Origin: a virus
UHGV virus genome: UHGV-1367038
Length of the DNA stretch: 52,981 nucleotides
Direction: 5' to 3' (one strand)
Part shown: positions 27,783-47,217 of the stretch, one piece after another
Numbering within the stretch: the first letter of the stretch is position 1
Layout of the letters: every line of letters begins with the position of its first letter
Notes under the pieces: generated by a model
The model's database searches: none
What the model was told of the DNA's origin: nothing
Seen by the model: the letters and a program-made list of their open reading frames with translations, nothing else
Position numbers and translations under genes: made by a program

Positions 27783-27826
27783 GTTTACAAAATGGCATTG
27801 TTCCGGCAGTGCCATTTTGTTATAAA
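27783..27826 (+). promoter_or_regulatory. Conserved inverted-repeat element ACAAAATGGCA-N12-TGCCATTTTGT followed by TATAAA
   Basis: Homologous to elements at 44124..44166 and 47170..47217. Confidence 0.45.
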
Positions 27827-27861
27827 GAAGCTGAAGAGAGAACGATGCGGAGGGTAGAAAA

Positions 27862-28140
27862 ATGAAACGCTGGATTAACAAAGAAGTCGAATCTCGCTTA
27901 AACGCATTTTGGGAGATGGTGGAGAAAGAAGACCCAGCACACGCTGCAAGCCCTTATCTGAACAACATTGAATATCACTACATTGCAGCAAACAACGCGG
28001 AGTTCGAGGAAGAAGGAGGGGCAGACAAGTTTGCACAAAGTAACGCATTCAACAACGCAAACGAAATGATGATGGCAGTTATCGAACAGGCAGAGGAAGA
28101 CTACGAATGCAAAGCACTTGAATTTGCACGCATGGCATAA
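27862..28140 (+). CDS. Hypothetical acidic protein
   Basis: GGAGGG RBS; 92 aa. Confidence 0.5.
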   Translation: MKRWINKEVESRLNAFWEMVEKEDPAHAASPYLNNIEYHYIAANNAEFEEEGGADKFAQSNAFNNANEMMMAVIEQAEEDYECKALEFARMA

Positions 28141-28149
28141 GGGGGAACC

Positions 28150-28290
28150 ATGAACGCTAACGCTAAATATCCGGCCTGGGTTTTTGAACTGTATGCTCGC
28201 TACTTTGAATTGCTGGAACCAGGTGAAGAAGCATTGAGCATTGACGAATACGCGGAGTGTTTAGGATTTAAAGGAGACGAAGAAGAATAA
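28150..28290 (+). CDS. Small acidic protein (46 aa)
   Basis: GGGGGA RBS; similar in pattern to 29142..29273. Confidence 0.35.
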   Translation: MNANAKYPAWVFELYARYFELLEPGEEALSIDEYAECLGFKGDEEE

Positions 28291-28330
28291 AACACGGGGC
28301 CGGATGGCCCCATCAAACGGAGTATAAATT

Positions 28331-28585
28331 ATGGTTGTGATCAGACTATGGCGCGGAGTTAGTAGGCTTGATGGTATATACAGCCGCGTAATTGAGGATG
28401 TTAACAATAGTCGGTTTTATGAGCTTGAATACAGCGAAAAAAGGGAGAATGAATATTTGAACGAATCGACACCTATGTGGTGCAAAGTGGCTGGCCTTTC
28501 TTCACTTATGCGTCACGGGTTTTATACAGATTATAACACGCTAACAGATGCCGAACTGGTAGCAACTCTTTACGAAGGAGAATAA
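28331..28585 (+). CDS. Hypothetical protein
   Basis: 84 aa ORF. Confidence 0.45.
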   Translation: MVVIRLWRGVSRLDGIYSRVIEDVNNSRFYELEYSEKRENEYLNESTPMWCKVAGLSSLMRHGFYTDYNTLTDAELVATLYEGE

Positions 28586-28588
28586 ATA

Positions 28589-28912
28589 ATGACTAAATTT
28601 ATCAGCGTTAAAGTTTTCCGTGGAACTATTCCAGAAGGTGAGAAATACGGTGAATTCGGTGGAATGACTGGAGCATGTTTCCGTGTAGCAACGGAAGACG
28701 ACGATCATGTTAAATGCTTCCACGTATCGGAGCCGCCTTTTAGTCCAGAGCATCTTGAAGACCCTGGTAAAATTAAAATGTTCGTCTTCGCATCACTAAC
28801 GATTAATCCTTACCCTGATCCTGATGTCGAATTGATCGGGGCTGAAATGGTCGCTGAATACAAAATAACCCCGGCAGACAACGGAGACTCTAAAATTGAG
28901 CGCATCAAATAA
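28589..28912 (+). CDS. Hypothetical protein
   Basis: 107 aa ORF. Confidence 0.5.
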   Translation: MTKFISVKVFRGTIPEGEKYGEFGGMTGACFRVATEDDDHVKCFHVSEPPFSPEHLEDPGKIKMFVFASLTINPYPDPDVELIGAEMVAEYKITPADNGDSKIERIK

Positions 28913-29120
28913 ACCTTACAAAATCCGCTGCAAAGGCAGTTATGACGGATTCACTCAGGGGTGTGAATACCTGGGCCACATTGGACATGGCCCGTTCGGT
29001 GAATTAGGGATGAATACGATAGACGACGACGGCGACAACAGGACGCTTGATCTTGATTCTGATGATTTCGAATACATCCCGCCAGTAACTTACCGCGACG
29101 TCGATGAATTTCCGGCATAA
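28896..29120 (+). CDS. Small protein, possible divergent paralog
   Basis: RCKGSYDGFTQGCEY ... DDDGDNRTL. Confidence 0.45.
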   Translation: MSASNKPYKIRCKGSYDGFTQGCEYLGHIGHGPFGELGMNTIDDDGDNRTLDLDSDDFEYIPPVTYRDVDEFPA

Positions 29121-29141
29121 CAAGAAGACGAGGACGATTAA

Positions 29142-29273
29142 ATGGAAGAGTGGTATAAAAATCTATTAATCATGTTTCTTGCTGAAAATTGGGCGCTATT
29201 TGAGCGTTTTTGCGATGAACATGGTGAAGACCCTAACGATATTTATCACGATCTTGGGGGCGAAGATGATTGA
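29142..29273 (+). CDS. Small acidic protein (43 aa)
   Basis: GAGGA RBS; MEEWYKNLLIMFLAENWALFERFCDEHGEDPNDIYHDLGGEDD. Confidence 0.35.
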   Translation: MEEWYKNLLIMFLAENWALFERFCDEHGEDPNDIYHDLGGEDD

Positions 29274-29466
29274 ATTTCTTATCGCTGCAATTATCTTTCT
29301 TTATATCGCTGGCGCTATATTAATGTCTTGCTTTGTTAGAAGTAACGATCTCGGCCCGGCTTACCTTGAAGTTACTTTTTGGCCTGTAGCAGTCTTTTAC
29401 GCTTTTGTAGACGCTACGCGCATACAGATCATGCGAGCTATTAAGGAGCGTAAAAATGGGAAATAG
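29266..29466 (+). CDS. Small membrane protein
   Basis: GGGGG RBS; MIEFLIAAIIFLYIAGAILMSCFV; the listed ORF from 29179 is probably an over-extension. Confidence 0.45.
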   Translation: MIEFLIAAIIFLYIAGAILMSCFVRSNDLGPAYLEVTFWPVAVFYAFVDATRIQIMRAIKERKNGK

Positions 29467-29653
29467 CGACCATAAATATGATGGCGTTTATCAGTCATTG
29501 GTGTCACGCGCTTATTATCGACTTGAAGGTGAACACGTAATGATGCGATTACGCCAGTGTGATCCGTGGCATGAAACGATTTTACCTGTGACAGCGAAAG
29601 AAGTTATCGCGATGTTTAATCACGGATACTGGCGCAAGGTTGGTGATTTATGA
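29456..29653 (+). CDS. Hypothetical protein
   Basis: 65 aa ORF. Confidence 0.45.
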   Translation: MGNSDHKYDGVYQSLVSRAYYRLEGEHVMMRLRQCDPWHETILPVTAKEVIAMFNHGYWRKVGDL

Positions 29654-29823
29654 ACGAGATCGAAGATGGTATCTATGTGCATAACTTATTTGATATTACT
29701 TACTTGCTGAAAGAAGAAAAGGTTTTTGTTATGTCGAGTGGGCATCCTTTCTGGACTTTCGTAAACATGGATCGTGAACAGATGCAAATATTGCTTGATA
29801 ATGGCCTGATAAAGAAGAAATAG
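29650..29823 (+). CDS. Hypothetical protein (57 aa)
   Basis: ATGA overlap with upstream stop. Confidence 0.4.
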   Translation: MNEIEDGIYVHNLFDITYLLKEEKVFVMSSGHPFWTFVNMDREQMQILLDNGLIKKK

Positions 29824-29889
29824 AAACCATAATCGCGCATAAAAAACAAATAGATTAAAATACTTCCTAACAATGCGAAATTGTAATTA

Positions 29890-29912
29890 CCCGGCACCGC
29901 GCCGGGTTTTTG
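29890..29912 (+). terminator. tR'-like terminator about 20 nt upstream of holin
   Basis: CCCGGC-accgc-GCCGGG then TTTTT. Confidence 0.7.
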
Positions 29913-29931
29913 CTTTGTTGGAGGTAAATCT

Positions 29932-30132
29932 ATGTTCGACAGAATACGGGAGGCGTGCGCGTATGTGACTGGGGCCGTAACTGCTTTTTTCGGCGCGATA
30001 ACCATCAATGACATTGCCGTCTTTGTGGGTATCTTATCAACCATTGGCACATTTGCCGTTAATTATTACTTCAAATCACAGGAGAACAAGCGAGCGCAAG
30101 AGGAACACGACGCGCGAATGGGGAATAAGTAA
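29932..30132 (+). CDS. Class II holin (phage 21 S-like pinholin candidate)
   Basis: 66 aa, two TM segments, charged C-terminus; GGAGG RBS. Confidence 0.6.
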
Positions 30133-30133
30133 A

Positions 30134-30625
30134 ATGATTAGCCAATCGCTGAAAAACAAAATTGTTGCGGCGGCGGCTGGTGGGGCGATCGCTATTGCGG
30201 CGGTGATGATAAAAGATCTTGAAGGCGTTGAGTATGAGCCATACAGAGATGTTATCGGTGTTTACACAATATGTTATGGTCACACCGGAAAGGACATTAT
30301 GTTGGGTAAGACTTACACGCAATCAGAATGCGATGCTTTGTTAAATAAAGATCTCCACAAAACCGCAAAAGCGATCGACCCCTATATTAAAGTCGAAATA
30401 TCAGATTTTACCCGCGCGGCGCTTTATTCATTCGCCTATAACGTAGGCGCTACAAACTTCAAAACATCAACCTTATTGAAGCTACTTAATGACGGCAAGA
30501 AATCAGAAGCGTGCGCACAGCTTAAACGCTGGATATACGCTGGCGGCAAGAAGTGGCAAGGCCTTGTTAACCGCCGTGATGTTGAATATGCCGTTTGCGA
30601 ATGGGGTGAAACATGGACAAGGTAA
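30134..30625 (+). CDS. SAR endolysin (T4-type lysozyme, GH24)
   Basis: N-terminal Gly/Ala-rich signal-anchor-release segment; E..D..T catalytic pattern ([22 protein letters not shown]). Confidence 0.8.
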
Positions 30626-31080
30626 AGGCGTTAATTATTGCCGTTGTTCTCTGTGTTGTTACCGCTCTGGTAGCTGCGTTATCTCACACTACCAGTCAGA
30701 TTTCTGCATTAGAGGCAGAGTTACAGACCACACAGGGCGCACTTAAGACAGCAAGTAACACTATTCAGCAGATGAAGGAGCGAAACGCCGAACTGTCAAA
30801 ACTTGATAAGAGGTATCACGATGAAATTAAAGCTATCAGGTCTGACATTGCCGATCTGCGCACTGGCATTGACAATGGCACTATCAAGCTGCGCGTCAAC
30901 GCAATGCCAGTGCGAGTGGACTCCGCCACAGGAACCGCCAGCAGCATTGATGGAGCCACCTGTAGACTCACTGCCAGTGCTCAATCAAATTATCTATCCC
31001 TCAGAGAACAATTAAAAGAGAAAGACGCGAAGATCACCGGATTGCAGGACTACATCAAGACGCAGTGCTTACGCAAATAA
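30613..31080 (+). CDS. Rz: Rz-like i-spanin
   Basis: N-terminal TM segment plus coiled-coil periplasmic domain; overlaps lysozyme stop. Confidence 0.7.
30821..31015 (+). CDS. Rz1: Rz1-like o-spanin lipoprotein, embedded in Rz in the +1 frame
   Basis: AGAGG RBS; lipobox LSSC; Pro-rich mature region. Confidence 0.6.
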   Translation: MKLKLSGLTLPICALALTMALSSCASTQCQCEWTPPQEPPAALMEPPVDSLPVLNQIIYPSENN

Positions 31081-31362
31081 TAACAGCGCGTGGACGTGTC
31101 GCCGTTTCCGCCAGCCAGCCATAACCGGGCCAATCCTTCCCGCGAGCGACGGCGGAATAGTCAAAAACACGTAATACCGGAACATCCATCCCATTAACAG
31201 GTCCGGCGCTACCTGGGTAGAAGAAAGCGCCATTCGCCAATTTTATAAAATTCTGGAAACGGTACTGATGAAGCGCCGTTTTCAGTGTTTTATAGCTGTT
31301 TTCACTCCCTGCGGTGTCGAGTTTTGCGGGGGTTATATTTTTCAGAATAGGAGATTATTCTG

Positions 31363-31905
31363 ATGGCTAAGGCTAAAGGCATTAAGTTGCCTCACTTCAA
31401 AATCCCACTATTTGAGCATACAACCGTTTTCTTTTGCCCGACCCGCGAGATGTTTTATGAATTTTGCGAAAAGGCAGGAATTCCAATCGAGCCTGATTTC
31501 GAACTGGCAGGCGGCCTGACACTCACTTGCACTGGCGAGAAAGGCGGTAACTTCTACGTGATCGCAGTATTCGACAATGAGTTAGGAACGCTGGTACATG
31601 AATGCGCTCACACCACATTCCATGTTTTAAGTGATGTAGGCGTCGTGGCGACCACTGATCCAACTCATCCGGCGAATGAGACTTACGCTTACATGGTAGG
31701 CCGCATCTTTGATGCATTTTTCCCTATCCTGGCTGAATCAAACGAAGCACAGGTTGCAGCAATGCAGGCGGCTGAAGTCGTTGAGCAGGCATTAGAACAG
31801 GCAGAACAGCCGAAGGAAGAAGAAAAACCCGCTAAGAAAGGCAAACGTAAGCCGAAATCAAAAGAAGCGTATGTACCGCGTGTAATGAGCTTTAAGCGAG
31901 GCTGA
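31363..31905 (+). CDS. Hypothetical protein with HExxH zincin-like motif
   Basis: LVHECAHTTFH; Lys-rich C-terminus. Confidence 0.5.
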   Translation: MAKAKGIKLPHFKIPLFEHTTVFFCPTREMFYEFCEKAGIPIEPDFELAGGLTLTCTGEKGGNFYVIAVFDNELGTLVHECAHTTFHVLSDVGVVATTDPTHPANETYAYMVGRIFDAFFPILAESNEAQVAAMQAAEVVEQALEQAEQPKEEEKPAKKGKRKPKSKEAYVPRVMSFKRG

Positions 31906-31907
31906 TT

Positions 31908-32003
31908 ATGGATGAATGCATCATCGCCGGATTAATTGGTATTTCTGTATTTCTGGTGAGTTTTATTATTGCCGTGCTGATAACCGTAAAGAGTAAATTA
32001 TGA
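31908..32003 (+). CDS. Tiny hydrophobic peptide 1 (31 aa)
   Basis: GAGG RBS; MDECIIAGLIGISVFLVSFIIAVLITVKSKL. Confidence 0.45.
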   Translation: MDECIIAGLIGISVFLVSFIIAVLITVKSKL

Positions 32004-32074
32004 ACACCTACGATCTCATCTGGTTATTGGTGCTCATCGTAGGTATTGGCGTGAACATTTACAGGCTATGGTGA
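32000..32074 (+). CDS. Tiny hydrophobic peptide 2 (24 aa)
   Basis: ATGA overlap; MNTYDLIWLLVLIVGIGVNIYRLW. Confidence 0.45.
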   Translation: MNTYDLIWLLVLIVGIGVNIYRLW

Positions 32075-32078
32075 AAAT

Positions 32079-32153
32079 ATGATTGACCCGCTTATTATCC
32101 TTTCTGCCTGCGTCGCTGTATGGCTGGCGATCATGATATTCATTGAAAGCTGA
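32079..32153 (+). CDS. Tiny hydrophobic peptide 3 (24 aa)
   Basis: MIDPLIILSACVAVWLAIMIFIES. Confidence 0.4.
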   Translation: MIDPLIILSACVAVWLAIMIFIES

Positions 32154-32164
32154 AGGTATTCACC

Positions 32165-32239
32165 ATGAATATTTACGATCTCATCTGGTGGTCGTTGGTC
32201 GCCGTAATTATCTATTTCTGGTGGAAGAATGTTGTATAG
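32165..32239 (+). CDS. Tiny hydrophobic peptide 4 (24 aa), paralog of peptide 2
   Basis: AAGG RBS; MNIYDLIWWSLVAVIIYFWWKNVV. Confidence 0.45.
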   Translation: MNIYDLIWWSLVAVIIYFWWKNVV

Positions 32240-32246
32240 GTGAATT

Positions 32247-32336
32247 ATGTATGGCCCATTCTACGAGTTAATACCGCTTGTTGTTCTGGCGATTGTTATA
32301 TGGTTTTTCTATGCGATGTTCAGAGTTCGCCCATAG
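32247..32336 (+). CDS. Tiny hydrophobic peptide 5 (29 aa)
   Basis: AGGTGA RBS; MYGPFYELIPLVVLAIVIWFFYAMFRVRP. Confidence 0.45.
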   Translation: MYGPFYELIPLVVLAIVIWFFYAMFRVRP

Positions 32337-32344
32337 GTGACTGC

Positions 32345-32443
32345 ATGGATATATTCGAACTACTGGCGATTATGTGCGGCATGATGTTAGGCATTGTCGC
32401 CATAATTATCATCATCGGCCTTGTTATGGGTAGCATCAAATGA
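32345..32443 (+). CDS. Tiny hydrophobic peptide 6 (32 aa)
   Basis: AGGTGA RBS; MDIFELLAIMCGMMLGIVAIIIIIGLVMGSIK. Confidence 0.45.
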   Translation: MDIFELLAIMCGMMLGIVAIIIIIGLVMGSIK

Positions 32444-32529
32444 ACGCATACGAAATGCTATTGCTGGTGGCTGTAGTTGTAGTCATTGCCGTAGATGTTT
32501 ATCGGGAGTTTAAAAATGAAATGGCTTGA
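32440..32529 (+). CDS. Tiny hydrophobic peptide 7 (29 aa)
   Basis: ATGA overlap; MNAYEMLLLVAVVVVIAVDVYREFKNEMA. Confidence 0.4.
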   Translation: MNAYEMLLLVAVVVVIAVDVYREFKNEMA

Positions 32530-32584
32530 TTTCTTTTTCCTGATTGTTGCGATTGTTCTCACCATGACCGCGCTGACTCAATAG
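32516..32584 (+). CDS. Tiny hydrophobic peptide 8 (22 aa)
   Basis: GGGAG RBS; MKWLDFFFLIVAIVLTMTALTQ. Confidence 0.4.
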   Translation: MKWLDFFFLIVAIVLTMTALTQ

Positions 32585-32592
32585 GTGAGCGA

Positions 32593-32667
32593 ATGAACGC
32601 TATTGACATTATGTTGATCGTGTGTACCGTTGCGTTAATTATCGTTGGGGTGATTATCAATGTCTGA
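32593..32667 (+). CDS. Tiny hydrophobic peptide 9 (24 aa)
   Basis: AGGTGA RBS; MNAIDIMLIVCTVALIIVGVIINV. Confidence 0.45.
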   Translation: MNAIDIMLIVCTVALIIVGVIINV

Positions 32668-32728
32668 CAGTGATTTCTTAATCATGGCTATATGCACGTT
32701 GTTAGTCGTTATAGTTTTCTTCGCGTAA
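32660..32728 (+). CDS. Tiny hydrophobic peptide 10 (22 aa)
   Basis: MSDSDFLIMAICTLLVVIVFFA. Confidence 0.4.
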   Translation: MSDSDFLIMAICTLLVVIVFFA

Positions 32729-32742
32729 ACAAGGTGGACAAT

Positions 32743-32814
32743 GTGAGAGAGTCAGATTTTATCTATATGGTTTTGGCTATCGTCCTCATTACCTGGGCGC
32801 TTTCGATTATGTGA
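32743..32814 (+). CDS. Tiny hydrophobic peptide 11 (23 aa, GTG start)
   Basis: AAGGTGG RBS; (M)RESDFIYMVLAIVLITWALSIM. Confidence 0.35.
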   Translation: MRESDFIYMVLAIVLITWALSIM

Positions 32815-32825
32815 AGGGGTAAACA

Positions 32826-32909
32826 ATGAAAGAGCTATTCGACTGGTTGGAAGTATTAACATACTGTGCAAGTTTTGTCGCTTGCGTATATATCATCAAT
32901 AAATATTGA
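32826..32909 (+). CDS. Tiny hydrophobic peptide 12 (27 aa)
   Basis: GAAGGGG RBS; MKELFDWLEVLTYCASFVACVYIINKY. Confidence 0.4.
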   Translation: MKELFDWLEVLTYCASFVACVYIINKY

Positions 32910-32919
32910 GAGGTGAATT

Positions 32920-33420
32920 ATGGCCCGCACTAAAAAGGCAAAAGCTGACGATAAAAAGCCAGCCGCAAAAAGGGTGGGCCGTCCGCATGGTTATACAGAA
33001 GAAAAAGCGTTAGAGATATGCGAACTGGTGGCGGACGGTCAGAGCATTAACAAAATATCAAAAATGCCAGGTATGCCTACCCGTTCAACAATCCTGAAAT
33101 GGTTTAGGGATGTACCGGAATTCTCGATCATGTACGCACGCGCGAAGGAGATCGGTTTCGAGGTGTTGGCTGACGAAATTATCGACCTGGCTGACTCCGA
33201 GAATAACGCTAATAAAGATCAGTGCCGCCGCCATCAACTGATGATTGATACCCGCAAATGGTTACTGGCAAAACTCCAACCGCGCAAATACGGCGAACGC
33301 GTCACACAGGAGATTGTTGGTGATGCAAATAATCCGGTACAGGTTGAACAACATACGCAAATGTCGATCGAGGACTACAGAAACGCCCGCCGTGAAATGC
33401 TCGAAGAAGATGATTGTTAA
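32920..33420 (+). CDS. Terminase small subunit
   Basis: 166 aa; N-terminal HTH-like basic region; position immediately upstream of large terminase; GAGAGGTGA RBS. Confidence 0.55.
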   Translation: MARTKKAKADDKKPAAKRVGRPHGYTEEKALEICELVADGQSINKISKMPGMPTRSTILKWFRDVPEFSIMYARAKEIGFEVLADEIIDLADSENNANKDQCRRHQLMIDTRKWLLAKLQPRKYGERVTQEIVGDANNPVQVEQHTQMSIEDYRNARREMLEEDDC

Positions 33421-33431
33421 GGCGGTAAATC

Positions 33432-34919
33432 ATGAAATCAACCAGTAAGCAAAGAACAGAAGCCAGACGAATAGAATGTATAGAAAGCGGTGAGTATTTT
33501 TGCCGCTACTTCTATAAACAGCGCACTGGCGCAAAGATGATAATTAGCGCACATCATAGAGTTATCCTTGAAACACTACAAAAAGTCATTAATGGCGAAA
33601 TAACCCGTTTAGTCATTAACATTCCTCCAGGGTATTCCAAAACAGAGATCGCGACAATTAATTTCATGTGTCGCGGCCTCGCCATCAATAACCGCTCCCG
33701 CTTCCTTCATTTATCCTACTCAAATAACCTTGCATTACTTAATTCATCAACAGCCAGAACAACTATCAAATCCAGATCCTTCCAGGATATGTGGAGGATG
33801 GATATAAGGGCCGATGCTGACAGTAAATCTATGTGGTGGAATCAGTACGGCGGCGGCGTGTATGCGACGTCAACGCTTGCGCAGGTCACGGGATTTCGAG
33901 CGGGCCATATGGAGGACGGATTTAACGGCGCGATGATTATCGACGACCCGTTAAAACCCGCTGACGCTTACTCTGATGTAGTTAGAACGCAGGTTAACAC
34001 CAACTACAACGATACTCTGGCTTCACGTCTGGCAGTGCAAACAACGCCAGTGATCGTTATCATGCAGCGTATCCACTACGATGATTTGTCCGGATACCTG
34101 TTACGCGGTGGGAGCGGTGAGAAATGGTATCACCTCAACCTGCCAGTGAAGATCGACAATAGCATTGACTATTGGGATCTGTACCCGGAAAATGAATTCG
34201 CTATTCCTATTGCTCACAACCTTCCTGACGGATGGCTATGGCCTAAAAAGCACAATGACAGCCACGAAGCCGGACTAAAGGCACACCGCAGGTCATTCGA
34301 AGCCCAATATATGCAGCGCCCGCGTAAATTCGACGAAGAAGGCGCATTGTGGACGGAAGCGATGATTACCGCTGCGCACCGGATGCAGATAACGCAGGAC
34401 AAGATCCGCACGGTGATAGCCATCGACCCGGCGACAACATCATCTGATGAGTCGGACGAAACCGGGATCGTGGCATGTTCAGCCTATGGTGGTGGCAAGT
34501 ACGCACAGTATTCAGTGGACGGTGACTACTCAGGCCGCATGTCTCCTAACGATTGGGCGCAAGCATCAATGAACGCTTATAACATCCATGAGGCTGATGC
34601 GATAGTTATCGAAACCAACCAGGGCGGCGAAATGGCAGAGGCCACGTTGCGTAATGCCGGATTTAAAGGCCGCATTGTTAAGGTGCACGCAAGCAAAGGT
34701 AAATTCGCCCGCGCCGAGCCAATATCGGCACTGTATGCACAAGGAAGGGTGGCCCACACAGGCAGCCTGTACACGCTGGAAAATCAAATGATGGAATACG
34801 TGCCAGCCACCGCCAAAAAATCACCTGACCGACTCGACGCAATGGTATGGGGTATCACTGAACTAAGCCAGCCTCAGGCAATGGGCCTGATGTTACCGAA
34901 GCGCCTGCGCGGATTTTAA
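33432..34919 (+). CDS. Terminase large subunit
   Basis: 495 aa; ATPase-like N-terminus; C-terminal nuclease-like VIAIDPATTSSDESDETGIVACS. Confidence 0.7.
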   Translation: MKSTSKQRTEARRIECIESGEYFCRYFYKQRTGAKMIISAHHRVILETLQKVINGEITRLVINIPPGYSKTEIATINFMCRGLAINNRSRFLHLSYSNNLALLNSSTARTTIKSRSFQDMWRMDIRADADSKSMWWNQYGGGVYATSTLAQVTGFRAGHMEDGFNGAMIIDDPLKPADAYSDVVRTQVNTNYNDTLASRLAVQTTPVIVIMQRIHYDDLSGYLLRGGSGEKWYHLNLPVKIDNSIDYWDLYPENEFAIPIAHNLPDGWLWPKKHNDSHEAGLKAHRRSFEAQYMQRPRKFDEEGALWTEAMITAAHRMQITQDKIRTVIAIDPATTSSDESDETGIVACSAYGGGKYAQYSVDGDYSGRMSPNDWAQASMNAYNIHEADAIVIETNQGGEMAEATLRNAGFKGRIVKVHASKGKFARAEPISALYAQGRVAHTGSLYTLENQMMEYVPATAKKSPDRLDAMVWGITELSQPQAMGLMLPKRLRGF

Positions 34920-34997
34920 AATCTGCCTCACAATCCCCCACAAATTTTTCTATTTTTCGCGTAGCAACGCGTAAACATGTATTCAGGAGTAAACATT

Positions 34998-40438: not shown

Positions 40439-40440
40439 CC

Positions 40441-40626
40441 ATGTGGAACGACATTACATTACCAAAACCACTAATGCCGAAGCCGTTTACCCGCGTGTGG
40501 GTGAAGACTGACACCGGGCGACAGGTGGCGGCATATCTCAATGATGCTGGTGAATGGGTAATTCTTTGCCCGCGCGTGGCGAAAACTCATCCGAAAATTG
40601 TTAAATGGAGTCATGGCTATGAGTAA
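40441..40626 (+). CDS. Hypothetical small structural protein
   Basis: GGGAGG RBS; 61 aa. Confidence 0.4.
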   Translation: MWNDITLPKPLMPKPFTRVWVKTDTGRQVAAYLNDAGEWVILCPRVAKTHPKIVKWSHGYE

Positions 40627-40987
40627 GATCGCGCGATTCAGTTACAAGGCATTAGCCACCATTTACCCCGTAACGCATGACGACTGGACAAACGCCGACG
40701 TATACGGCGATCCATACCTGATTAACTGCGCATGGGAGCGCACCGACGGCACTGCTACAGACACAAACGGCAATGAGGTTAGCAATACGATAACCGTATT
40801 TACCGAACTGCTTCACAACATGCAGCCAGTGCAGCGCCCGGAAAGGGGCTGGATGGTTGCTACTGGCGACACTACTGATATTCCAGACCCACTGGCGGCT
40901 GGGGCCAACGTTATAACCGGAATCGTTGAATGGGATATGAGCATGTTCAACGACACGCCGGATTATAAGATCGTTACAGGGGGTTAA
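40619..40987 (+). CDS. Putative head-tail joining protein
   Basis: GGAG RBS; 122 aa. Confidence 0.35.
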   Translation: MSKIARFSYKALATIYPVTHDDWTNADVYGDPYLINCAWERTDGTATDTNGNEVSNTITVFTELLHNMQPVQRPERGWMVATGDTTDIPDPLAAGANVITGIVEWDMSMFNDTPDYKIVTGG

Positions 40988-40989
40988 TT

Positions 40990-41454
40990 ATGCCGATTAA
41001 AGGCGTTAAGCGCGTAAGGGAGCGATTGAAACAGGAATTAAAGGAAATAGCCGACAAGAAGACGCATGAGGTTTTATGGCGCGTAGGTATGCTGGCTGGT
41101 GGCTTTGCTGCGAATATGACGCCAGTCGATACGGGTTTTTTAATTAACAGCCAGTTTCAGTATATAGGGAACACGGCTGACGGTATGCAATTACGCCTTG
41201 GATATACGGCCCGCTATGCTGAATGGGTGCACAATATGCCAGGTAAATTAAAAGGACAGCCGCGCGAACATTTCGGGAAAACAAATAACCTTTCAGATTT
41301 CGGGCCGAAACAGGTAATTGAGTTTGGCGGCGGTACTGGTAAGGGTAATTATTGGGACCCAAACGGTGAGCCGGAATTCTTGCTCAATGCGTTCGAAGAT
41401 CCAAACAACGCTGATGATATTTACAAAGAAATTGTAGAAGGTTACAAGGTATGA
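40990..41454 (+). CDS. Putative head-tail joining / tail completion protein
   Basis: 154 aa, coupled. Confidence 0.35.
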   Translation: MPIKGVKRVRERLKQELKEIADKKTHEVLWRVGMLAGGFAANMTPVDTGFLINSQFQYIGNTADGMQLRLGYTARYAEWVHNMPGKLKGQPREHFGKTNNLSDFGPKQVIEFGGGTGKGNYWDPNGEPEFLLNAFEDPNNADDIYKEIVEGYKV

Positions 41455-41837
41455 AACGCAGCGAAGTATACGACGAAATAAGGGATTGGATTAAATCCCA
41501 CGGATACGATGAAGGCTATATTTTGCAGGCCCGTTTCTGGAATGAGCGAAGCAATTCGAATAACGACAGATACATCGTGATCCAGCAAAACGGCGGCGCG
41601 GCTGGAGAAGAAGCAATTACCCGTGACTATTTCCGCATTCTGGTTATTTCAGCGCGTAATGATGCAAATATCAGTGAAGTGGAAGACCTTGCCGACGCCA
41701 TCCGTCAAAGTATGTTAACAGAATATAAAACTGATAAAATTACACACATGAAGCCAGTTGGCGCTATTCCTGCGATGCAAACGAGAGAAGGGCGCTTTAT
41801 TTTTACCGTAGCTTTTCAAACCATCATATCTAGATAA
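41451..41837 (+). CDS. Putative tail completion protein
   Basis: 128 aa, coupled. Confidence 0.35.
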   Translation: MKRSEVYDEIRDWIKSHGYDEGYILQARFWNERSNSNNDRYIVIQQNGGAAGEEAITRDYFRILVISARNDANISEVEDLADAIRQSMLTEYKTDKITHMKPVGAIPAMQTREGRFIFTVAFQTIISR

Positions 41838-41850
41838 GAGGTAATTAAAC

Positions 41851-42327
41851 ATGTCTCAGACTTGCGAAAAAGGCGCATTTTTGGGCCGCGACGTGGCTGT
41901 ATTCTTCGCTATCGCTTGTCCTAACGCGAAGCCAGAAGATGGAGAATACAATGCGTTAGGCATGATGCGCGGCAAAACGCTTTCCGTTGAATGGGAAACG
42001 GCAGACGCCACCGCTGATAAATCAGCAAACTACACTAAGGAATCAATGGTAACTTACAAATCCGTTTCTTTCTCCGGCGACGGCGTATCCCGTACTGAAG
42101 AAATCCACAACCAGAAGACGTTGAAACGTCATACCATTAACCCTGGTGAAACTACTGGTAATCAACCTTATGTATGGTTGAAAATCGTTTCTCCTGTAGA
42201 TGTGACCGAGGGGCCGTTCCTTTGCACCTCCTTTAAAGAAGAAGATCCACACGATGATGTTTCCACCTGGTCAATCGAGTGTGAAAGCGCTGGACAGGTA
42301 AGTGTGGAAGATATTCCAGAAGCATAA
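41851..42327 (+). CDS. Major tail (tube) protein
   Basis: 158 aa; followed by terminator; position before chaperone and tape measure. Confidence 0.5.
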   Translation: MSQTCEKGAFLGRDVAVFFAIACPNAKPEDGEYNALGMMRGKTLSVEWETADATADKSANYTKESMVTYKSVSFSGDGVSRTEEIHNQKTLKRHTINPGETTGNQPYVWLKIVSPVDVTEGPFLCTSFKEEDPHDDVSTWSIECESAGQVSVEDIPEA

Positions 42328-42345
42328 CAAATAACATTAACAATC

Positions 42346-42369
42346 GGGGCCATCTGGCCCCTTTCTTTT
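42346..42369 (+). terminator. Rho-independent terminator after major tail gene
   Basis: GGGGCC-atct-GGCCCC then TTTCTTTT. Confidence 0.7.
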
Positions 42370-42381
42370 AGGGTGACAGTT

Positions 42382-43059
42382 ATGATCCATGTTCGAACAG
42401 GACAATTTGCAGCCGTGGTAGACGGCAGGCGGTACGTATTTAATCCCTGCTTCGCCGCGATGGCTAAGATCGGCAGTGACACCGAACTGGTGGAATACTT
42501 CGCAATCATCCACGGTGGCAAATATCCATCACGATTACCAGCAGATCCAGACTTACGCAATCGCATTCTGGCGCGCTGTTATGGTGAGATAGTGCAAACG
42601 TCCATGCACATCCTGAAATGTTGCGCAGAAGACGAAACAGGGCCATTGCTGGGCGAATGCAGATTCACTTCCTCCGGCAAGTTGAGACTAAAACCCGGAT
42701 TGATGCCAACAGAGGATGTAATCACGCTGGCACAGCATTGCATGTACCACGGTTTAATCGGTGACGGGCCGGAAGAATACGACGGTGAGATCCGGGAAGG
42801 TGAATATAAGCCGACATTTGATGTTCTTGAATTCGTTTACTCTGCCGTTGCTCACCTTGGATTGTCAGAATCAGAAGCGTGGAACATGACAATGACCGGA
42901 TACAGGGCCGCTGTACGTGCTAAAACGCCTCCAGACGAAAGAAACGAAAGAAGTAAGCCAAACGTTCACATAAATAAACGTGCTTATGACGAGCAAATGG
43001 AGGCCGCTAAAAAGGCGCTGGAAAGAATGAAAAATCGCAAGCAAGAAAAAGCCCGGTAG
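42382..43059 (+). CDS. Putative tail assembly chaperone
   Basis: AGGGTGA RBS; position between major tail and tape measure. Confidence 0.45.
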   Translation: MIHVRTGQFAAVVDGRRYVFNPCFAAMAKIGSDTELVEYFAIIHGGKYPSRLPADPDLRNRILARCYGEIVQTSMHILKCCAEDETGPLLGECRFTSSGKLRLKPGLMPTEDVITLAQHCMYHGLIGDGPEEYDGEIREGEYKPTFDVLEFVYSAVAHLGLSESEAWNMTMTGYRAAVRAKTPPDERNERSKPNVHINKRAYDEQMEAAKKALERMKNRKQEKAR

Positions 43060-43082
43060 ATCCGGGCGTTCTCTTTTATTTG
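43045..43082. terminator. Bidirectional terminator between the plus-strand chaperone gene and minus-strand moron cassette 1
   Basis: CCCGG-tagat-CCGGG flanked by A-run upstream and T-run downstream. Confidence 0.55.
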
Positions 43083-43378
43083 TATGCTGAAAACCTGCAT
43101 CTTGCTTCTTCTAAATCGCTTACTGTATACACGTTCTCAAAAACATACGTCGCAACCTGTACTTTTTGCACGTCCGTAGCGTTAGGGAATTCCATGCTGG
43201 CGAACGTTAAAGCGTCGACGTAGTGTTTAAACATTTTCTTGTTTACGCATAGCGCGTAAATCAATACAGCAGGCCAAAAAATCAGAGCGCCAATAAAAGC
43301 CATAAGCATGTTTAAGTGTTTTTTACCAGCTACGACCATAGTCACAACGAATCCAATGAAGCCAATTATTAGTTCCAT
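43076..43378 (-). CDS. Moron 1d: membrane protein
   Basis: AAGGAGG RBS; MELIIGFIGFVVTMVVAGKK; two TM segments. Confidence 0.5.
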   Translation of the reverse strand: MELIIGFIGFVVTMVVAGKKHLNMLMAFIGALIFWPAVLIYALCVNKKMFKHYVDALTFASMEFPNATDVQKVQVATYVFENVYTVSDLEEARCRFSAYK

Positions 43379-43389
43379 GATGCGCCTCC

Positions 43390-43497
43390 TTATTTGCATT
43401 CGCCTTTTATTGTCAGTGCCAGCACGAATACAGCCATTACATTAAAAGCTACCCATGCTGACATATACACGTCTATGATGCTTTTGATAATATCCAT
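43390..43497 (-). CDS. Moron 1c: small membrane peptide (35 aa)
   Basis: GGGGG RBS; MDIIKSIIDVYMSAWVAFNVMAVFVLALTIKGECK. Confidence 0.4.
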   Translation of the reverse strand: MDIIKSIIDVYMSAWVAFNVMAVFVLALTIKGECK

Positions 43498-43498
43498 G

Positions 43499-43849
43499 TT
43501 ACGCCCCCGCCTCAATTCTGTTATGAATTGCGAATCCTTTAACTTCGCCGTCATGAATCACTTTTAATTGTTCAGGATCTTTTAATCCTTCAACTATTTC
43601 TTTGTATTTTTCGTGTAGTCTATATTCTTCAACAATTTTTTTATCAAGAAATGGCACTACTGCTTTATATTCACATGCTGCGTTATATACGATCTCAACA
43701 TAACCCATGCTGTCACCATACTTGATGTCGTACAATTCAGCGGCAACCGCGCATTCATGTTTTGCTTTATCAACTTTGTTTTCTGCGTTAGCACCAAATG
43801 CAAATGCTGCAATCATCGCCGCCATCACTGCTTTTGCTAACCGTTTCAT
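43499..43849 (-). CDS. Moron 1b: secreted/periplasmic protein
   Basis: GAGGTGG RBS; Sec signal peptide MKRLAKAVMAAMIAAFAFGANA. Confidence 0.6.
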   Translation of the reverse strand: MKRLAKAVMAAMIAAFAFGANAENKVDKAKHECAVAAELYDIKYGDSMGYVEIVYNAACEYKAVVPFLDKKIVEEYRLHEKYKEIVEGLKDPEQLKVIHDGEVKGFAIHNRIEAGA

Positions 43850-43861
43850 AAACCACCTCGC

Positions 43862-43951
43862 TTAATTTTTGTTTTTAAGTGCTTTTAACATTTCTTCGAT
43901 GAAATCAGCATAGCGTTCATATTCGTTGGGGCGGTAGTTTACGTTTTTCAT
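43862..43951 (-). CDS. Moron 1a: small hydrophilic peptide (29 aa)
   Basis: AGAGGA RBS; MKNVNYRPNEYERYADFIEEMLKALKNKN. Confidence 0.35.
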   Translation of the reverse strand: MKNVNYRPNEYERYADFIEEMLKALKNKN

Positions 43952-44123
43952 TTTCTTATCCTCTTTTGCTTCCTCCGGTTTATCCGGCCTTTTAAAATCC
44001 TTTTCCTGCTTCCTTAGTTTTAGGGGATTTCGCCTCCCTCGTTCCTTCGGTTAGCTGGGCTTCAAGTCTCAATCCTTTATATCCTTCGACCTTCTTTTCC
44101 CTCTCTCATCCTTCACCTTCTTT

Positions 44124-44166
44124 ATACAAAATGGAGTCGTTGAAGTGAAGCCATTTTGTATAAAAT
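44124..44166 (+). promoter_or_regulatory. Conserved inverted-repeat element TACAAAATGG-N16-CCATTTTGTA followed by TATAAAAT
   Basis: Near-identical to 47170..47217; lies between moron cassette 1 and tape measure gene. Confidence 0.5.
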
Positions 44167-44201
44167 AGAGACGTAGATCACATTTTGTATGAGGTTAAAT
44201 C

Positions 44202-46544
44202 ATGGCTACCAGTTTAGGTACAATTTATTACGAAGTTGACGCCAAAACGGGGCAACTTCTTGTCGTGCAGCGGCAAGCAGATCAAACGTTTGACACCATC
44301 GAGCGCGGCGCAAAACGTGCCGATCGCCAGGTGAATACACTTAAAACGTCAATCAAAACACTGACCAGGGCAATCCACCTGCTACTTGCTGCCGAGGCTG
44401 TGCGCCAGTTTATTGATATGGCGGAACAGGCAAAACAGTTACGCGTAAAAATCAAAATGCTGACAGGTGATGCCGAGTCTGCCGGACGGGTTTTCGATGG
44501 TCTGAAAGCAATATCCAGGGAGACAGGTCAGAGCCTGAAAGATACTGGCGAATTATGGCAAGGACTGGCTATCTCACTCAAGAACACCTCCGCCACGGAA
44601 GGGCAACTGCTTAACCTGGTTGGCACTATTCAGAAAATGGGTGCGCTAGGAGGTGCGTCAGCGGAACAAATGTCTAACTCAATGCGCCAGTTCCGCCAGG
44701 CTATCGACGGCGGCGTATTGCGTGCTGAAGAATTCAACAGCCTACTTGAAAACACTCCCACCATCGTACAGACAATGGCCCGCCAGATGGGGTTATCAAT
44801 GGGCCAGTTCCGCGCTGAAATGCTGGACGGCAAGATCACGGCTGAAAGGATGGTCAACGCAATCCAGGCGGCTACGCAGGAAACAAACGATAAGTTTGCT
44901 CAGTTGCCGCGCACATCCGGCATGGCTATCAACGAACTAAAAGTCGAAGTGATGGGCCTGGTTGAGCAACTGGACGATCTTTTCGGTGTATCAGATGGCG
45001 TGGTATCAGCTATCGACTTAATCACGAAGGTCGTTAAAGGGTTAGGTGAGGGCGCTAAATTCGCTAAAACCTGCTTCGACACACTCAAAACGGCTGGTAG
45101 CGAATTTATCGACATGTTTGATGATGTTGCTGTTAAAGCTGGTGAGGTGGCGGAGAAGATCATCGCAATGGTGACGCCAATCAAGGCGCTAATGGATGCA
45201 TATAAATGGATGAAGGAGGTAGTAGGAGAGCAAACCGACGAATATAACAGCAACTACGAGAAGAAATACGGGAAGACCGTTGGCAAGGTCATGCAACTAC
45301 AGGATGATCTGACAGCAGCAATCCAGGCTACAGAAGAAGCAAGGAAAAATGAACAGAATGCTGCCAATGACGGAGCGATTACCGGATTCGACAAGCCAGT
45401 TGATAAGCCGAAAAAGCAGAAAAAAGAGAAGAAATCGGAAGCCGATCGTCTTGGTGACAGGGGTATAAGCGTTTCTGACCAGTACAATAAAGACGCAGCA
45501 GCTATGCGCAAAGCGTTAGAGAACGGCAAGGCTATTGATGCTGCATTCGCTCAGGGGAAAATAACACTCCTTGAGTACCGCGCAGCGCAAAAGGGGATCG
45601 GCAAGGAACTGAAGGAAGAATTAGCGCAGATCCCTGCAGATGAATTACGTGATAAATGGGCGCAAATAGTAAGCCCGATGGATCAGCTTAAAGGCGAGGT
45701 TGACCCTATTCAGCAGGCGCAAAATGAATGGGCCGTCCGTAAGCAAATGTTGTTAGATCTGAACGCATCAGAGGCGCAAATCAGGGCCGAGCAACTCCAG
45801 CATGAAAGGACCATCACCAGCCTTAAATGGGAACAATGGCAGGCGCAAAGCGATACAAACGGCCTGATCGGTGATTGCGTTAACGGCCTTAAAGGCGGTA
45901 TGAGCAATGCGCTCGTCGGCCTGCTTAACGGTACTCAATCATTGAGCGATGTTTTTGCTAACTTAGGGAGCAATATACTAGGGAACATCGGTAGCAGACT
46001 TTCTGACATAGCCGCCGACTGGATAGCAGATCAAATCATGATGGAGACGCAAAGCAAGGCCACGCAAGCCAGTACAACGGCAAGCGCGGTAGCCGCTCAG
46101 GGAAGCATAGCGGCGGCGGCGGCCCCGGCGGCGGCAGCGACAGCGGCATCAACTGGCGGTAGCTGGGCGGCGGCTGGTTCTGCGGCGCTAACTGCAATCA
46201 TGTCGCTGGCAACATCCATTTTCGGCGGCAGGCGCTTTAATGGTGGTAGTGTCATTGGCGGCAATTTGTACCGTGTCGGGGAAAATAACAGAATGGAGCT
46301 ATTCCAGACGCCTAACGGCAACCAATATATGATCCCTGGCGAGAATGGCAGAATCATCCCTGGCCGTGACATTGGCGGCGGTGGCGGTATTAGTATGCCT
46401 GTCAGTATCAGCATTCAGACCACAAACGGATTTAGCGAAGAAGACAGCCGCAGACTTGAATCAACAATGGAACGTGTAGCCATGAAAATGATAACAAGGG
46501 AGTCGCAAAGACCAGGCGGTATATTGCAGCCGCGCCGCAAATAA
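44202..46544 (+). CDS. Tail tape measure protein
   Basis: 780 aa; tape-measure N-terminal domain; coiled-coil middle; Gly/Ala-rich C-terminus. Confidence 0.85.
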   Translation: MATSLGTIYYEVDAKTGQLLVVQRQADQTFDTIERGAKRADRQVNTLKTSIKTLTRAIHLLLAAEAVRQFIDMAEQAKQLRVKIKMLTGDAESAGRVFDGLKAISRETGQSLKDTGELWQGLAISLKNTSATEGQLLNLVGTIQKMGALGGASAEQMSNSMRQFRQAIDGGVLRAEEFNSLLENTPTIVQTMARQMGLSMGQFRAEMLDGKITAERMVNAIQAATQETNDKFAQLPRTSGMAINELKVEVMGLVEQLDDLFGVSDGVVSAIDLITKVVKGLGEGAKFAKTCFDTLKTAGSEFIDMFDDVAVKAGEVAEKIIAMVTPIKALMDAYKWMKEVVGEQTDEYNSNYEKKYGKTVGKVMQLQDDLTAAIQATEEARKNEQNAANDGAITGFDKPVDKPKKQKKEKKSEADRLGDRGISVSDQYNKDAAAMRKALENGKAIDAAFAQGKITLLEYRAAQKGIGKELKEELAQIPADELRDKWAQIVSPMDQLKGEVDPIQQAQNEWAVRKQMLLDLNASEAQIRAEQLQHERTITSLKWEQWQAQSDTNGLIGDCVNGLKGGMSNALVGLLNGTQSLSDVFANLGSNILGNIGSRLSDIAADWIADQIMMETQSKATQASTTASAVAAQGSIAAAAAPAAAATAASTGGSWAAAGSAALTAIMSLATSIFGGRRFNGGSVIGGNLYRVGENNRMELFQTPNGNQYMIPGENGRIIPGRDIGGGGGISMPVSISIQTTNGFSEEDSRRLESTMERVAMKMITRESQRPGGILQPRRK

Positions 46545-46548
46545 ACAA

Positions 46549-46580
46549 AACCCCGGTACAATGCCGGGGTTATCTTTTAT
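46549..46580. terminator. Bidirectional terminator after tape measure gene
   Basis: CCCCGG-tacaatg-CCGGGG then TTATCTTTTAT. Confidence 0.7.
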
Positions 46581-46753
46581 TCATTATCAAAACTTGTATA
46601 TCCTCTCTCAATTTTCCCGCCTCTTACGCTTTTGGCGAATACTGCGTCAGTGTATTTGAAAAACGGTTCTGTGTATGTATCGCCTTTCGTGTCCATCCAT
46701 TTTACGATCCAGGCCATGCGTTTGACGTTGCTTTTATTTGCAGTGACTTTCAT
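46577..46753 (-). CDS. Moron 2c: small protein (58 aa)
   Basis: GGAGG RBS; MKVTANKSNVKRMAWIVKWMDTKGDTYTEPFFKY. Confidence 0.45.
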   Translation of the reverse strand: MKVTANKSNVKRMAWIVKWMDTKGDTYTEPFFKYTDAVFAKSVRGGKIERGYTSFDNE

Positions 46754-46771
46754 TTTATTTTCCTCCGCAAA

Positions 46772-46864
46772 TTACAATCTTCCGTTTCTTGCTATGTAGC
46801 TGCGAGCAAACATCACTTGCCAGATGTTCCATATTTCACGCCAGGTGAATTTATCGTCATTCAT
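46772..46864 (-). CDS. Moron 2b: small protein (30 aa)
   Basis: GAGGTAGG RBS; MNDDKFTWREIWNIWQVMFARSYIARNGRL. Confidence 0.35.
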   Translation of the reverse strand: MNDDKFTWREIWNIWQVMFARSYIARNGRL

Positions 46865-46871
46865 ACCTACC

Positions 46872-47126
46872 TCACTTATGCGCACCTTTGACGCCGCAGT
46901 GCCTGTTATATTCAAGATGATCGATGATTAACCATACCTTGAGGTCTTCACTGAACAGCCGCCAATCAGGGTTGATGTCAAATTTGAAACCGTATCCGTC
47001 GCGTAACTTTTTGGGGTACGCTTCTTTCTTCAGAAACGCTTTGAGCAATTCCTTACCTTTCTTGATGATCCGGTCCTGTGCGTTTTTCTGTGCTTTCAGG
47101 TTTTTGTCAATCGCTACCAGTTTCAT
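46872..47126 (-). CDS. Moron 2a: basic hypothetical protein (84 aa)
   Basis: ORF with start at 47126. Confidence 0.5.
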   Translation of the reverse strand: MKLVAIDKNLKAQKNAQDRIIKKGKELLKAFLKKEAYPKKLRDGYGFKFDINPDWRLFSEDLKVWLIIDHLEYNRHCGVKGAHK

Positions 47127-47169
47127 AACATCCCCCTTTGCGTAACGTCTTTCTCATTTGCTTTCTGTA

Positions 47170-47217
47170 TACAATATGGAGTTCATAAAGTGAAGCCATT
47201 TTGAAAACTGGTTATAA
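47170..47217 (+). promoter_or_regulatory. Conserved inverted-repeat element TACAATATGG-N16-CCATTTTG followed by TATAAT
   Basis: Homolog of 44124..44166; near-CRP site TGTGA-N6-TCTCA at 47222..47237. Confidence 0.5.

Follow-up and report, generated by a model that had tools for sequence, protein, structure and literature searches.

What is the nature of a nearly palindromic element that recurs upstream of several genes of a single phage genome, and what does it do there? The question is raised by the UHGV virus genome UHGV-1367038 (52,981 nucleotides; "the window" denotes this whole stretch), for which a sequence-only reading had listed three copies of an inverted-repeat element and had offered three explanations: a bipartite operator for a dimeric regulator, a family of internal promoters, or a recombination boundary. 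The window is a complete or near-complete genome of a temperate coliphage of the mEpimmI group, related to mEp021; its nearest database relatives, at ~80-83% DNA identity, are MagusPhagus, mEp010, mEp044, mEp021, mEp554, mEp013 and mEp515. The mEpimmI phages were recently set apart as a family-level group that is common in the human gut (PMC11893012). Described regulators are a CI-like repressor and an N-like antiterminator, Gp17, with nutL, nutR1 and nutR2 sites, together with several terminators; regulation beyond the repressor and the antiterminator is unmapped, and this paper, the sole one found on the group, does not mention the repeat (PMC11893012). Among the three options the internal promoter family fits best, with two corrections: the promoters would point in two directions, and they would be part of a genome-wide set of sites, including PL, that combine CCATTTTG with a -10-like hexamer. 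We propose that each repeat forms the core of a regulated promoter module of the sigma-70 type that works in both directions, and we give this proposal about even probability.

All three listed copies are present (Table 1). The repeat motif is CAAAATGG-N16-CCATTTTG, and the gap between the two 8-mers is exactly 16 bp in every copy, rather than the 12 to 16 bp given earlier. The pattern ACAAWATGG-N10-20-CCATTTTG matches only these three loci (0.00 expected, 100 shuffles), which marks the element as non-random. There is also a fourth, degenerate copy that had not been listed. Copies 2 and 3, described as nearly identical over ~38 bp, are indeed alike, with 80% identity across 50 nt. The -10-like hexamer said to follow the right arm adjoins it in copies 1, 2 and 4, whereas it lies 9 bp further on in copy 3 of the window. 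The flanks AAATGTGATCTAC ... TATAAAGAAG match between the plus strand of copy 1 and the minus strand of copy 2, therefore copy 1 is inverted relative to copy 2, and the alignment of all copies on the same strand holds for the palindromic core only, not for the flanks. A local 18-bp dyad, CCATTTT-N4-AAAATAG, is found on the plus strand of copy 2 only.

The arms are mirror copies of CCATTTTGTA, which is the most over-represented 10-mer of the genome (6 versus 0.16 expected); ACAAAATGG is the most over-represented 9-mer (10 versus 0.66-0.92 expected). At least 15 of the 21 near-matches of this word are truly intergenic, in a genome with a coding fraction of ~91%, and its copies adjoin a -10-like hexamer of the form TA(T/A)A(A/C)(A/T). 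The word is present at PL, in the spacer of the rep promoter, beside the -35 of PR, at the promoter before nutR2 and at a promoter of the early operon (17988); PR, the strongest-scoring promoter, carries it upstream of the -35 but at no other place. Unpaired copies of the word exist too, and its orientation relative to transcription is mixed. Inverted pairs number 6 versus 0.96 expected (at most 4 in 100 shuffles); the two words are separated by 16 bp in copies 1-3, by 25 bp at the nutR2 promoter and by 26 bp at PL, spacings that differ by roughly one helical turn. Seven regions, including PL and the promoter before nutR2, align to a single architecture that consists of a CRP-like site, an A/T-rich stretch, a -35-like hexamer, the word and a -10-like hexamer. 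Since the same unit also forms PL (TTGATC-N16-TAAACT) and the nutR2 promoter, the elements appear to belong to the phage's own promoter family. The nutR2 promoter, with CCGTTTTG-TATACT at 21556-69, leaves only ~7 nt of transcript before the nutR2 boxA; this unit and the 17988 unit are conserved in mEp021. A search for the word in published full texts matched unrelated primer sequences only, and the literature on spacer T-tracts or TRTG yielded nothing helpful.

The CRP-like sites of this architecture resemble TGTGA-N6-TCACA, the core of the E. coli CRP consensus. Allowing one mismatch at most, the genome holds 8 such sites versus 1.36 expected, 5 of the 8 in regulatory gaps. The site at 21509-24, upstream of the nutR2 promoter, is perfect, and so is the core TGTGATCTGTATCACA in most orthologues of copy 1. 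Measured from the centre of the site to the -10 hexamer, the distance is 47.5-48.5 bp for PL, the nutR2 promoter, 17988, the plus strand of copy 1 (48.5 bp to TATAAA) and the minus strand of copy 2; copy 3 has 58.5 bp and copy 4 has 51.5 bp. Assuming a start 7 nt after the hexamer, 47.5-48.5 bp correspond to about -59.5 to -60.5. For a promoter facing the site, the palindrome covers about +2 to +6. In class I CRP promoters (lac P1 type), TGTGA-N6-TCACA is centred near -61.5, -71.5 and so on. The modules share with these the consensus core, perfect at the nutR2 promoter and in most copy 1 orthologues, and weak -35 hexamers; they differ in the calculated centre and in the single good half-site of copies 1 (in the window) and 2, and all sites are candidates only.

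The promoters themselves were ranked by a simple position-weight sigma-70 scoring with textbook hexamer frequencies over all 105870 positions. PR ranks 1 and the minus-strand promoter of copy 4 ranks 2, followed by the plus strand of copy 3 (rank 16), PL (28), the plus strand of copy 2 (43), and the nutR2 and 17988 promoters (76). Every copy has, in at least one direction, a -10 hexamer with A2 and T6 (TAAACT, TAAAAT, TATAAT and TATGAT/TATATT in copies 1 to 4); such hexamers lie on the CRP-facing side in 4 of 4 copies and on the opposite side in copy 4 only. The -35-like hexamer is good on the minus strand of copy 4 (TTGATC, N17) and fair for TTCACT, TTGTTC and GTGAAG. On the plus strand of copy 1, TATAAA is preceded by TGn and, 17 bp upstream, by TTGTTC; a TGn is likewise found on the plus strand of copy 4. 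The plus-strand promoter of copy 2 requires a 15-bp spacer.

The direction of these promoters is suggested by the gene context. The tail operon is broken three times by cassettes of small minus-strand genes (43076-43951, 46577-47126 and 47948-48755), a layout that is likewise annotated in mEp021 and MagusPhagus. Copies 2, 3 and 4 fill the divergent gaps between the first gene of a cassette and the genes for the tape measure protein (TMP), M and L, respectively. These three tail genes each come after a terminator, and the reverse cassettes offer no alternative location for a promoter; in copy 4 the only columns that vary among relatives lie in the spacer of the minus-strand promoter, with TTGATC and TATATT fixed. 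We therefore read the modules as two-way. The earlier statement that the elements precede plus-strand genes is correct for copies 2-4 and incomplete, as each of these also heads a minus-strand cassette; by their architecture, they would point into the reverse cassettes at least as much as into the tail genes. Copy 1 is located among small early or accessory genes and heads forward accessory genes.

In the proposed mechanism, host sigma-70 RNA polymerase would read compact two-way promoter regions built on the repeats. The core would be formed by two mirror words CCATTTTG(TA) 16 bp apart, each adjoining an outward -10-like hexamer, with the shared 16-bp spacer providing -35-like hexamers for both directions. 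The CRP-consensus palindrome would lie beyond one arm, in class I activator geometry at about -60 for the promoter that points away and in the position of a repressor for the promoter that points towards it. Copies 2-4 would thus be placed at flips of gene orientation, their leftward promoters heading the cassettes and their rightward promoters facing TMP, M and L; copy 1 would serve the forward accessory genes and double as a terminator-type hairpin in plus-strand RNA. What is observed are the sequences with their enrichment, conservation, geometry and gene context; from these we infer transcription starts at the elements, binding of CRP or another protein to the palindrome, and a role of the word as either an upstream A-tract/spacer element or the site of a regulator.

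Several observations weigh against this proposal. The CRP-like site is only half good at copy 1 in the window and at copy 2, and the distance of 51.5 bp in copy 4 is off phase. Copy 1 scores low in both directions (rank ~480), and it is wholly absent from mEp021. The hexamers that point away from the CRP-like site end without T in copies 1-3 (TATAAA, TATAAA and TATACA). Conservation of the word is tighter than a promoter spacer requires, and tighter than that of the -35 of copy 2, which points to an extra binding factor. Finally, a Q-type antiterminator and its likely promoter could carry tail transcription through terminators, and internal promoters are then not strictly needed.

Table 1. Positions of the repeat copies, candidate CRP-like sites, related promoter units and reverse cassettes in the window.
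Feature	Position	Strand	Sequence or content	Remark
Copy 1, core	27788-27819		arms CAAAATGG (27788-95) and CCATTTTG (27812-19)	feature span 27787..27820
Copy 1, fold	27787..27820		15-bp hairpin, 4-nt loop	over whole stretch
Copy 1, outward -10-like hexamer	27782-87	minus	TAAACT	
Copy 1, outward -10-like hexamer	27821-26	plus	TATAAA	
CRP-like site by copy 1	27765..27780		TGTGATCTACCCCGCA	only left half intact in window
Copy 2, core	44127-44158		palindrome TTTATACAAAATGG-N16-CCATTTTGTATAAA, 14+14 bp	feature span 44121..44166, which holds the palindrome
Copy 2, hexamers	44140-45 and 44161-66	plus	TTGAAG, N15, TAAAAT	
Copy 2, hexamers	44126-21 (TATAAA)	minus	TTCACT, N17, TATAAA	
CRP-like site by copy 2	44167..44189	plus	AGAGACGTAGATCACA	only right half good
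Third word copy by copy 2	within 44167..44189	plus	ACATTTTGTA	beside TMP Shine-Dalgarno
Copy 3, core	47172-47203		arms CAATATGG and CCATTTTG	feature span 47166..47218; minus-strand TATACA
Copy 3, hexamers	47190-95 and 47213-18	plus	GTGAAG, N17, TATAAT	
CRP-like palindrome by copy 3	47222..47237		TGTGATGAATGTCTCA	
Copy 4 (degenerate), core	48789-48820		arms CATATTGT-N16-CCATTTTG	feature span 48783..48827; upstream of L-like tail gene
Copy 4, hexamers	48811-06 and 48788-83	minus	TTGATC, N17, TATATT	
Copy 4, extended hexamer	48819-27	plus	TGgTATGAT	
CRP-like palindrome by copy 4	48832..48847		CGTGACACAGATCACA	
TGTGA-N6-TCACA sites	10502, 12781, 17941, 21509, 24750, 47222, 48832, 49678			at most one mismatch
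PL-type unit	12735..12796	minus	TGTGACTTGTATCAAA, TTGATC, CCATTCTG, TAAACT	nutL downstream
Early-operon unit (17988)	17941..18001	plus	CGTGATTGCGATCACA, ACATTTTG, TTGTGA, CCGTTTTG, TAAACT	
Unit before nutR2	21509..21569	plus	TGTGATGAGGATCACA, TTGTTC, CCGTTTTG, TATACT	boxA at 21584
Reverse cassette 1	43051..43951	minus	genes 43076-43399 and 43499-43849; 29-aa open reading frame 43862-43951	bidirectional terminator 43051-67 at end
Reverse cassette 2	46549..47126	minus	genes 46577-46753 and 46872-47126 (ParE-like)	bidirectional terminator 46549-71 at end
Reverse cassette 3	47852..48755	minus	genes 47948-48196 (KilAC-like), 48206-48580 and 48537-48755	GC hairpin 47852-70 at end

The antiterminator in question is encoded at 23027-23755 and belongs to the Q-lambda family (PHROG 127, E = 3.5e-78; PDB 7UBM chain Q, E = 1.5e-36). 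Neither a promoter nor a terminator was found directly after the gene. Before the holin gene (start 29932), TAAAAT (29856-61) is followed after N7 by AACAAT at about +1 to +6 and by a strong terminator (29889-29907); the stretch 29856-29907 is conserved in mEp021, where the terminator is TERM_5. The PR' promoter of lambda carries AACGAT at +1 to +6 (PMC4005639), and by this resemblance the locus is likely the PR' of the phage. The Q gene lies ~6 kb upstream of it, with ~25 small genes inserted between. Given a Q-lambda-type antiterminator and a likely PR', the tail genes would be readable through terminators without internal promoters. A further reading takes the elements as extra Q-loading late promoters, at which the word, as a Q binding element between -35 and -10, would reload Q after the terminators. 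The phage does encode a protein of the right family, Q-lambda binds an asymmetric 13-bp site as a monomer (PMC9388147), and the word stands just upstream of the -10. Nevertheless, the likely PR' does not contain the word, no -10-like pause element is found at +1 to +6 in any of the four elements, and PL, an early promoter, carries the word as well. On these grounds we reject the word as a Q binding element and, with it, a Q-dependent late promoter and the Q-like regulator suggested earlier for these sites, as exceedingly improbable.

The promoter reading gains from the conservation of the modules. We gathered 47 loci via the TMP protein and aligned them with MAFFT, which left 30 (copy 2), 34 (copy 3) and 33 (copy 4) distinct sequences. 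The element occupies the three tail junctions in ~45 relatives, and the cassettes between them differ in length. The whole ~110-bp gaps are nearly invariant even where TMP drops to ~50% identity. In copy 2, the arms and TAAAAT are near-invariant in the 30 distinct relatives and a GATCACA motif is invariant. The left arm of copy 3 is CATCTTGT in relatives, with GTGAAGCCATTTTGTAAACT..TATAAT conserved; the left arm of copy 4 is CATATTGT, and the element is conserved in all 33. In these two copies, constancy is confined to the right arm, the hexamers that face outward and GATCACA. A scan of IMG/VR with 16 specified bases found the element in the mEpimmI group only, plus scattered chance-like matches, and the copy 2 region is matched in only 15 of 5426 complete E. 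coli genomes; a prophage of E. coli UMNK88 shows 95.5% identity to it at copy 2.

These data also bear on the proposed recombination boundary. If the elements were passive, they would be conserved junction DNA left by the exchange of cassettes (morons), serving only as homology for recombination. Indeed, sequences diverge immediately outside the modules, three different genes follow copy 1 among relatives, and cassette lengths vary widely while the element stays (684-1569 bp between TMP and M, 646-1278 bp upstream of TMP). In one relative (L061; IMGVR_UViG_3300045988_076424, 9378-9504) the third cassette and the small gene after M are lost, and copy 4 is retained with the first ~30 nt of the cassette leader. 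However, modules that stay near-invariant beside a TMP gene at ~50% identity indicate purifying selection rather than neutral junction DNA, and the same word and geometry are found at two places outside cassette junctions, PL and the nutR2 promoter. A passive role is therefore quite improbable; exchange at these places is compatible with the data as ordinary homologous exchange at conserved DNA, not as the use of a dedicated site.

The bipartite operator for a dimeric regulator is weakly supported. The enrichment of inverted pairs speaks for it; the decay of the left arm, the missing symmetric co-variation and the existence of single words speak against it. Mirror half-sites are present in copies 1 and 2, whereas in copies 3 and 4 of relatives they are replaced by the left arms given above. 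The arms are 24 bp apart centre to centre, versus ~10-11 bp for the operator of a dimeric helix-turn-helix repressor. In copy 2 the two arms do not vary in a symmetric manner: CAAAATGT goes with CCATTTTG, and CAAAACGG with ACATTTTG. A simple palindromic operator of a dimeric helix-turn-helix repressor is thus disfavoured by the decay of the left arm in copies 3 and 4.

A less symmetric variant deserves more attention as a tentative possibility. Here CCATTTTG(TA) would be the asymmetric, dispersed and sometimes paired site of a specific phage or host regulator, and the 32-bp palindromes, as double sites, would clamp the -35 region and shut both promoters. Such a regulator is compatible with the promoter reading, from which it differs in the weight given to protein bound at the arms. 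Conservation of the word exceeds that of the -35 hexamers and the spacer, the word stands at every predicted regulated early promoter (PL, rep spacer, -35 side of PR, nutR2 promoter and 17988), and the enriched inverted pairs have spacers (16, 16, 16, 25 and 26 bp) that are roughly in phase. In addition, the nutR2 promoter leads to Q and would have to be silent in the lysogen, which would require a repressor site. On the other side, no candidate protein for the word was identified among those considered (Rep and the cassette proteins); in the latter, no DNA-binding family that could provide an autoregulator was found. Rep is a dimer of the lambda-CI type and at least 92% identical across all 43 relatives compared. 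Dimers of this type are expected on short palindromes, whereas the word is asymmetric and the local 18-bp dyad confined to copy 2. At PR the word stands nowhere but upstream of the -35; in relatives, copies 3 and 4 have left arms that do not mirror the right ones, and the arms do not co-vary symmetrically. We drew no inference on the Rep operator from the alignment with lambda CI, in which the residues of the recognition helix differ.

Dispersed asymmetric operators are known for the P1 C1 repressor and, as 'stoperators', for gp71 of mycobacteriophage L5. Common to both and to the window are a short asymmetric word, ~15-20 intergenic copies, the overlap with promoters and occasional inverted pairs; different are the repressor, which is lambda-CI-like rather than C1-like or gp71-like, and the mixed orientation of the word. 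It is rather doubtful, though conceivable, that CCATTTTGTA is the dispersed operator of one regulator that acts with host CRP as a direction switch. Once CRP is bound, firing of a module would be directed away from its site, towards the cassettes, PL and the nutR2 operon; the CRP-covered promoter facing the tail genes would be blocked, and the word-binding protein could shut both. If true, the switch would amount to a P1-C1-like or stoperator-like regulon on top of a lambda-type CI, N and Q circuit, and would tie early, accessory and internal tail transcription to the carbon status of the host.

To return to the bidirectional promoter modules, the palindromes may in principle act not as DNA but in RNA, as hairpins with the function of intrinsic terminators or insulators. 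The evidence differs between copies. The plus-strand RNA of copy 1 folds with -20.5 kcal/mol (z = -4.9), and in 14 distinct orthologues 209 of 210 cells of its stem are paired (99.5%). Six pairs change on one side only and stay G-U or better, with zero double changes; on the minus strand, the same substitutions give A-C mismatches, so that only 11-13 of 15 positions pair. By our hand tally of the variable pairs, ~7 of 8 transitions in copy 1 favour plus-strand pairing, a signal that is weak but directional. The mEp044 orthologue of copy 1 is annotated as an ARNold terminator, whereas a simple terminator scan did not flag copy 1. Copy 2 also folds well (z = -5.5), but with an AU-only stem, an unstructured centre of 16 nt and no U-tail, and variants in its inner arms break pairs without compensation. 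Copies 3 and 4 fold no better than shuffled sequence (z = -0.8 to +0.6). The GC-rich stem-loop and U-run of an intrinsic terminator are absent from copies 2-4, and the Rfam scan of the whole window gave zero family matches at the gathering score. Compared with bidirectional intrinsic terminators, copy 1 shares a GC-containing stem, flanking A- and U-runs and the ARNold call in mEp044; its U-run lies inside the stem, and copies 2-4 lack a GC core. Moreover, genuine terminators already close the other end of each cassette. With copies 3 and 4 at the level of shuffled sequence and only an AU stem in copy 2, a hairpin role would be that of copy 1, not of the family, and as a general explanation it is unlikely.

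Two further candidates were dropped. Control by Dam is not suggested by GATC, which is not depleted (252 versus 203 expected) and not clearly enriched in regulatory regions (10 versus 6.6). Sigma-32-like and sigma-54-like readings of the word and of the copy 1 spacer were dismissed by eye, with key positions not conserved in relatives.

Among known systems, the predicted promoter modules can be compared with morons. In lambdoid and HK97-like phages, moron cassettes, reportedly described by Juhala et al. 2000, are said to consist of a promoter, a gene and a terminator between late genes. The cassettes in the window agree in their small accessory genes of variable content between tail genes, in their factor-independent terminators and variable lengths, and in a predicted sigma-70-like promoter. 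The convergent end of every cassette is a strong GC hairpin with T-runs, and the products comprise small proteins without assigned function, a ParE-like toxin and a KilAC-type antirepressor fragment. They differ in that all three cassettes are reverse, their promoter regions are copies of one conserved palindromic module, and this module has a CRP-like site and is turned towards the next tail gene as well. A second parallel is the immI region of P22, in which the divergent, overlapping promoters Pant and Pmnt lie within the late region together with symmetric operators for Arc and Mnt. Here, too, predicted back-to-back promoters stand in a late/tail region with dyad symmetry over the shared promoter DNA, and one cassette carries an antirepressor-like (KilAC) gene. 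In contrast to P22, the cassettes gave no protein of the Arc or Mnt type, the centres of the dyad arms are separated by 24 bp, and the genome holds four copies of the module. We consider the element a variant on moron promoters, divergent overlapping promoters and CRP-type promoters, and hence a useful regulatory map rather than a new kind of system. For the mEpimmI group, this map comprises a word that marks ~15 regulatory sites, seven predicted promoters of one architecture, including PL and the nutR2 promoter, and a likely PR'. The copies of a single module would wire three reverse cassettes into the tail operon, which bears on both the exchange and the expression of cassettes, and the CRP-type sites could couple phage development and accessory-gene expression to host metabolism.

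We note a number of minor features. Back-to-back with PR, a leftward unit of the word plus TATACT (13470-13592) faces the bidirectional terminator after the repressor gene and could yield a leftward RNA of ~100 nt. The word also stands directly upstream of the Shine-Dalgarno sequence of a helicase gene (CCATTTTGTAAACATGAGG, 9893-9928), an exonuclease-like gene (ACATTCTGTAAACATGAGG, 11030-11064) and TMP (ACATTTTGTATGAGG, 44180-44201); these copies are similar to the U-rich enhancer of translation in the T7 gene 10 leader. Directly behind copy 3, the ParE-like toxin gene (46872-47126, minus strand) has no obvious adjacent antitoxin gene. Between copy 2 and the first sizeable gene of cassette 1 lies a purine-rich leader of ~160 nt (43952-44113, minus strand), in addition to the open reading frame of 29 amino acids. 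Another repeat, TTTTTCGCGTAG(N3)CGCGTAAA, yields a small GC hairpin and is found in the terminase/portal gap (34952-34985) and in the gap between copy 3 and M (47237-47270), the latter kept in all relatives. In the gap before the small terminase gene, the start of a small open reading frame (ATGAACACCTACGATCTCATCTGG...) is duplicated at 32000-32046 and 32165-32211 with 74% identity. Within the HTH_36 replication gene (11521-12561), two tandem units of 45 bp (GGTGTCTCTCTGACACTACCC..., 12147-12236) are probably origin iterons.

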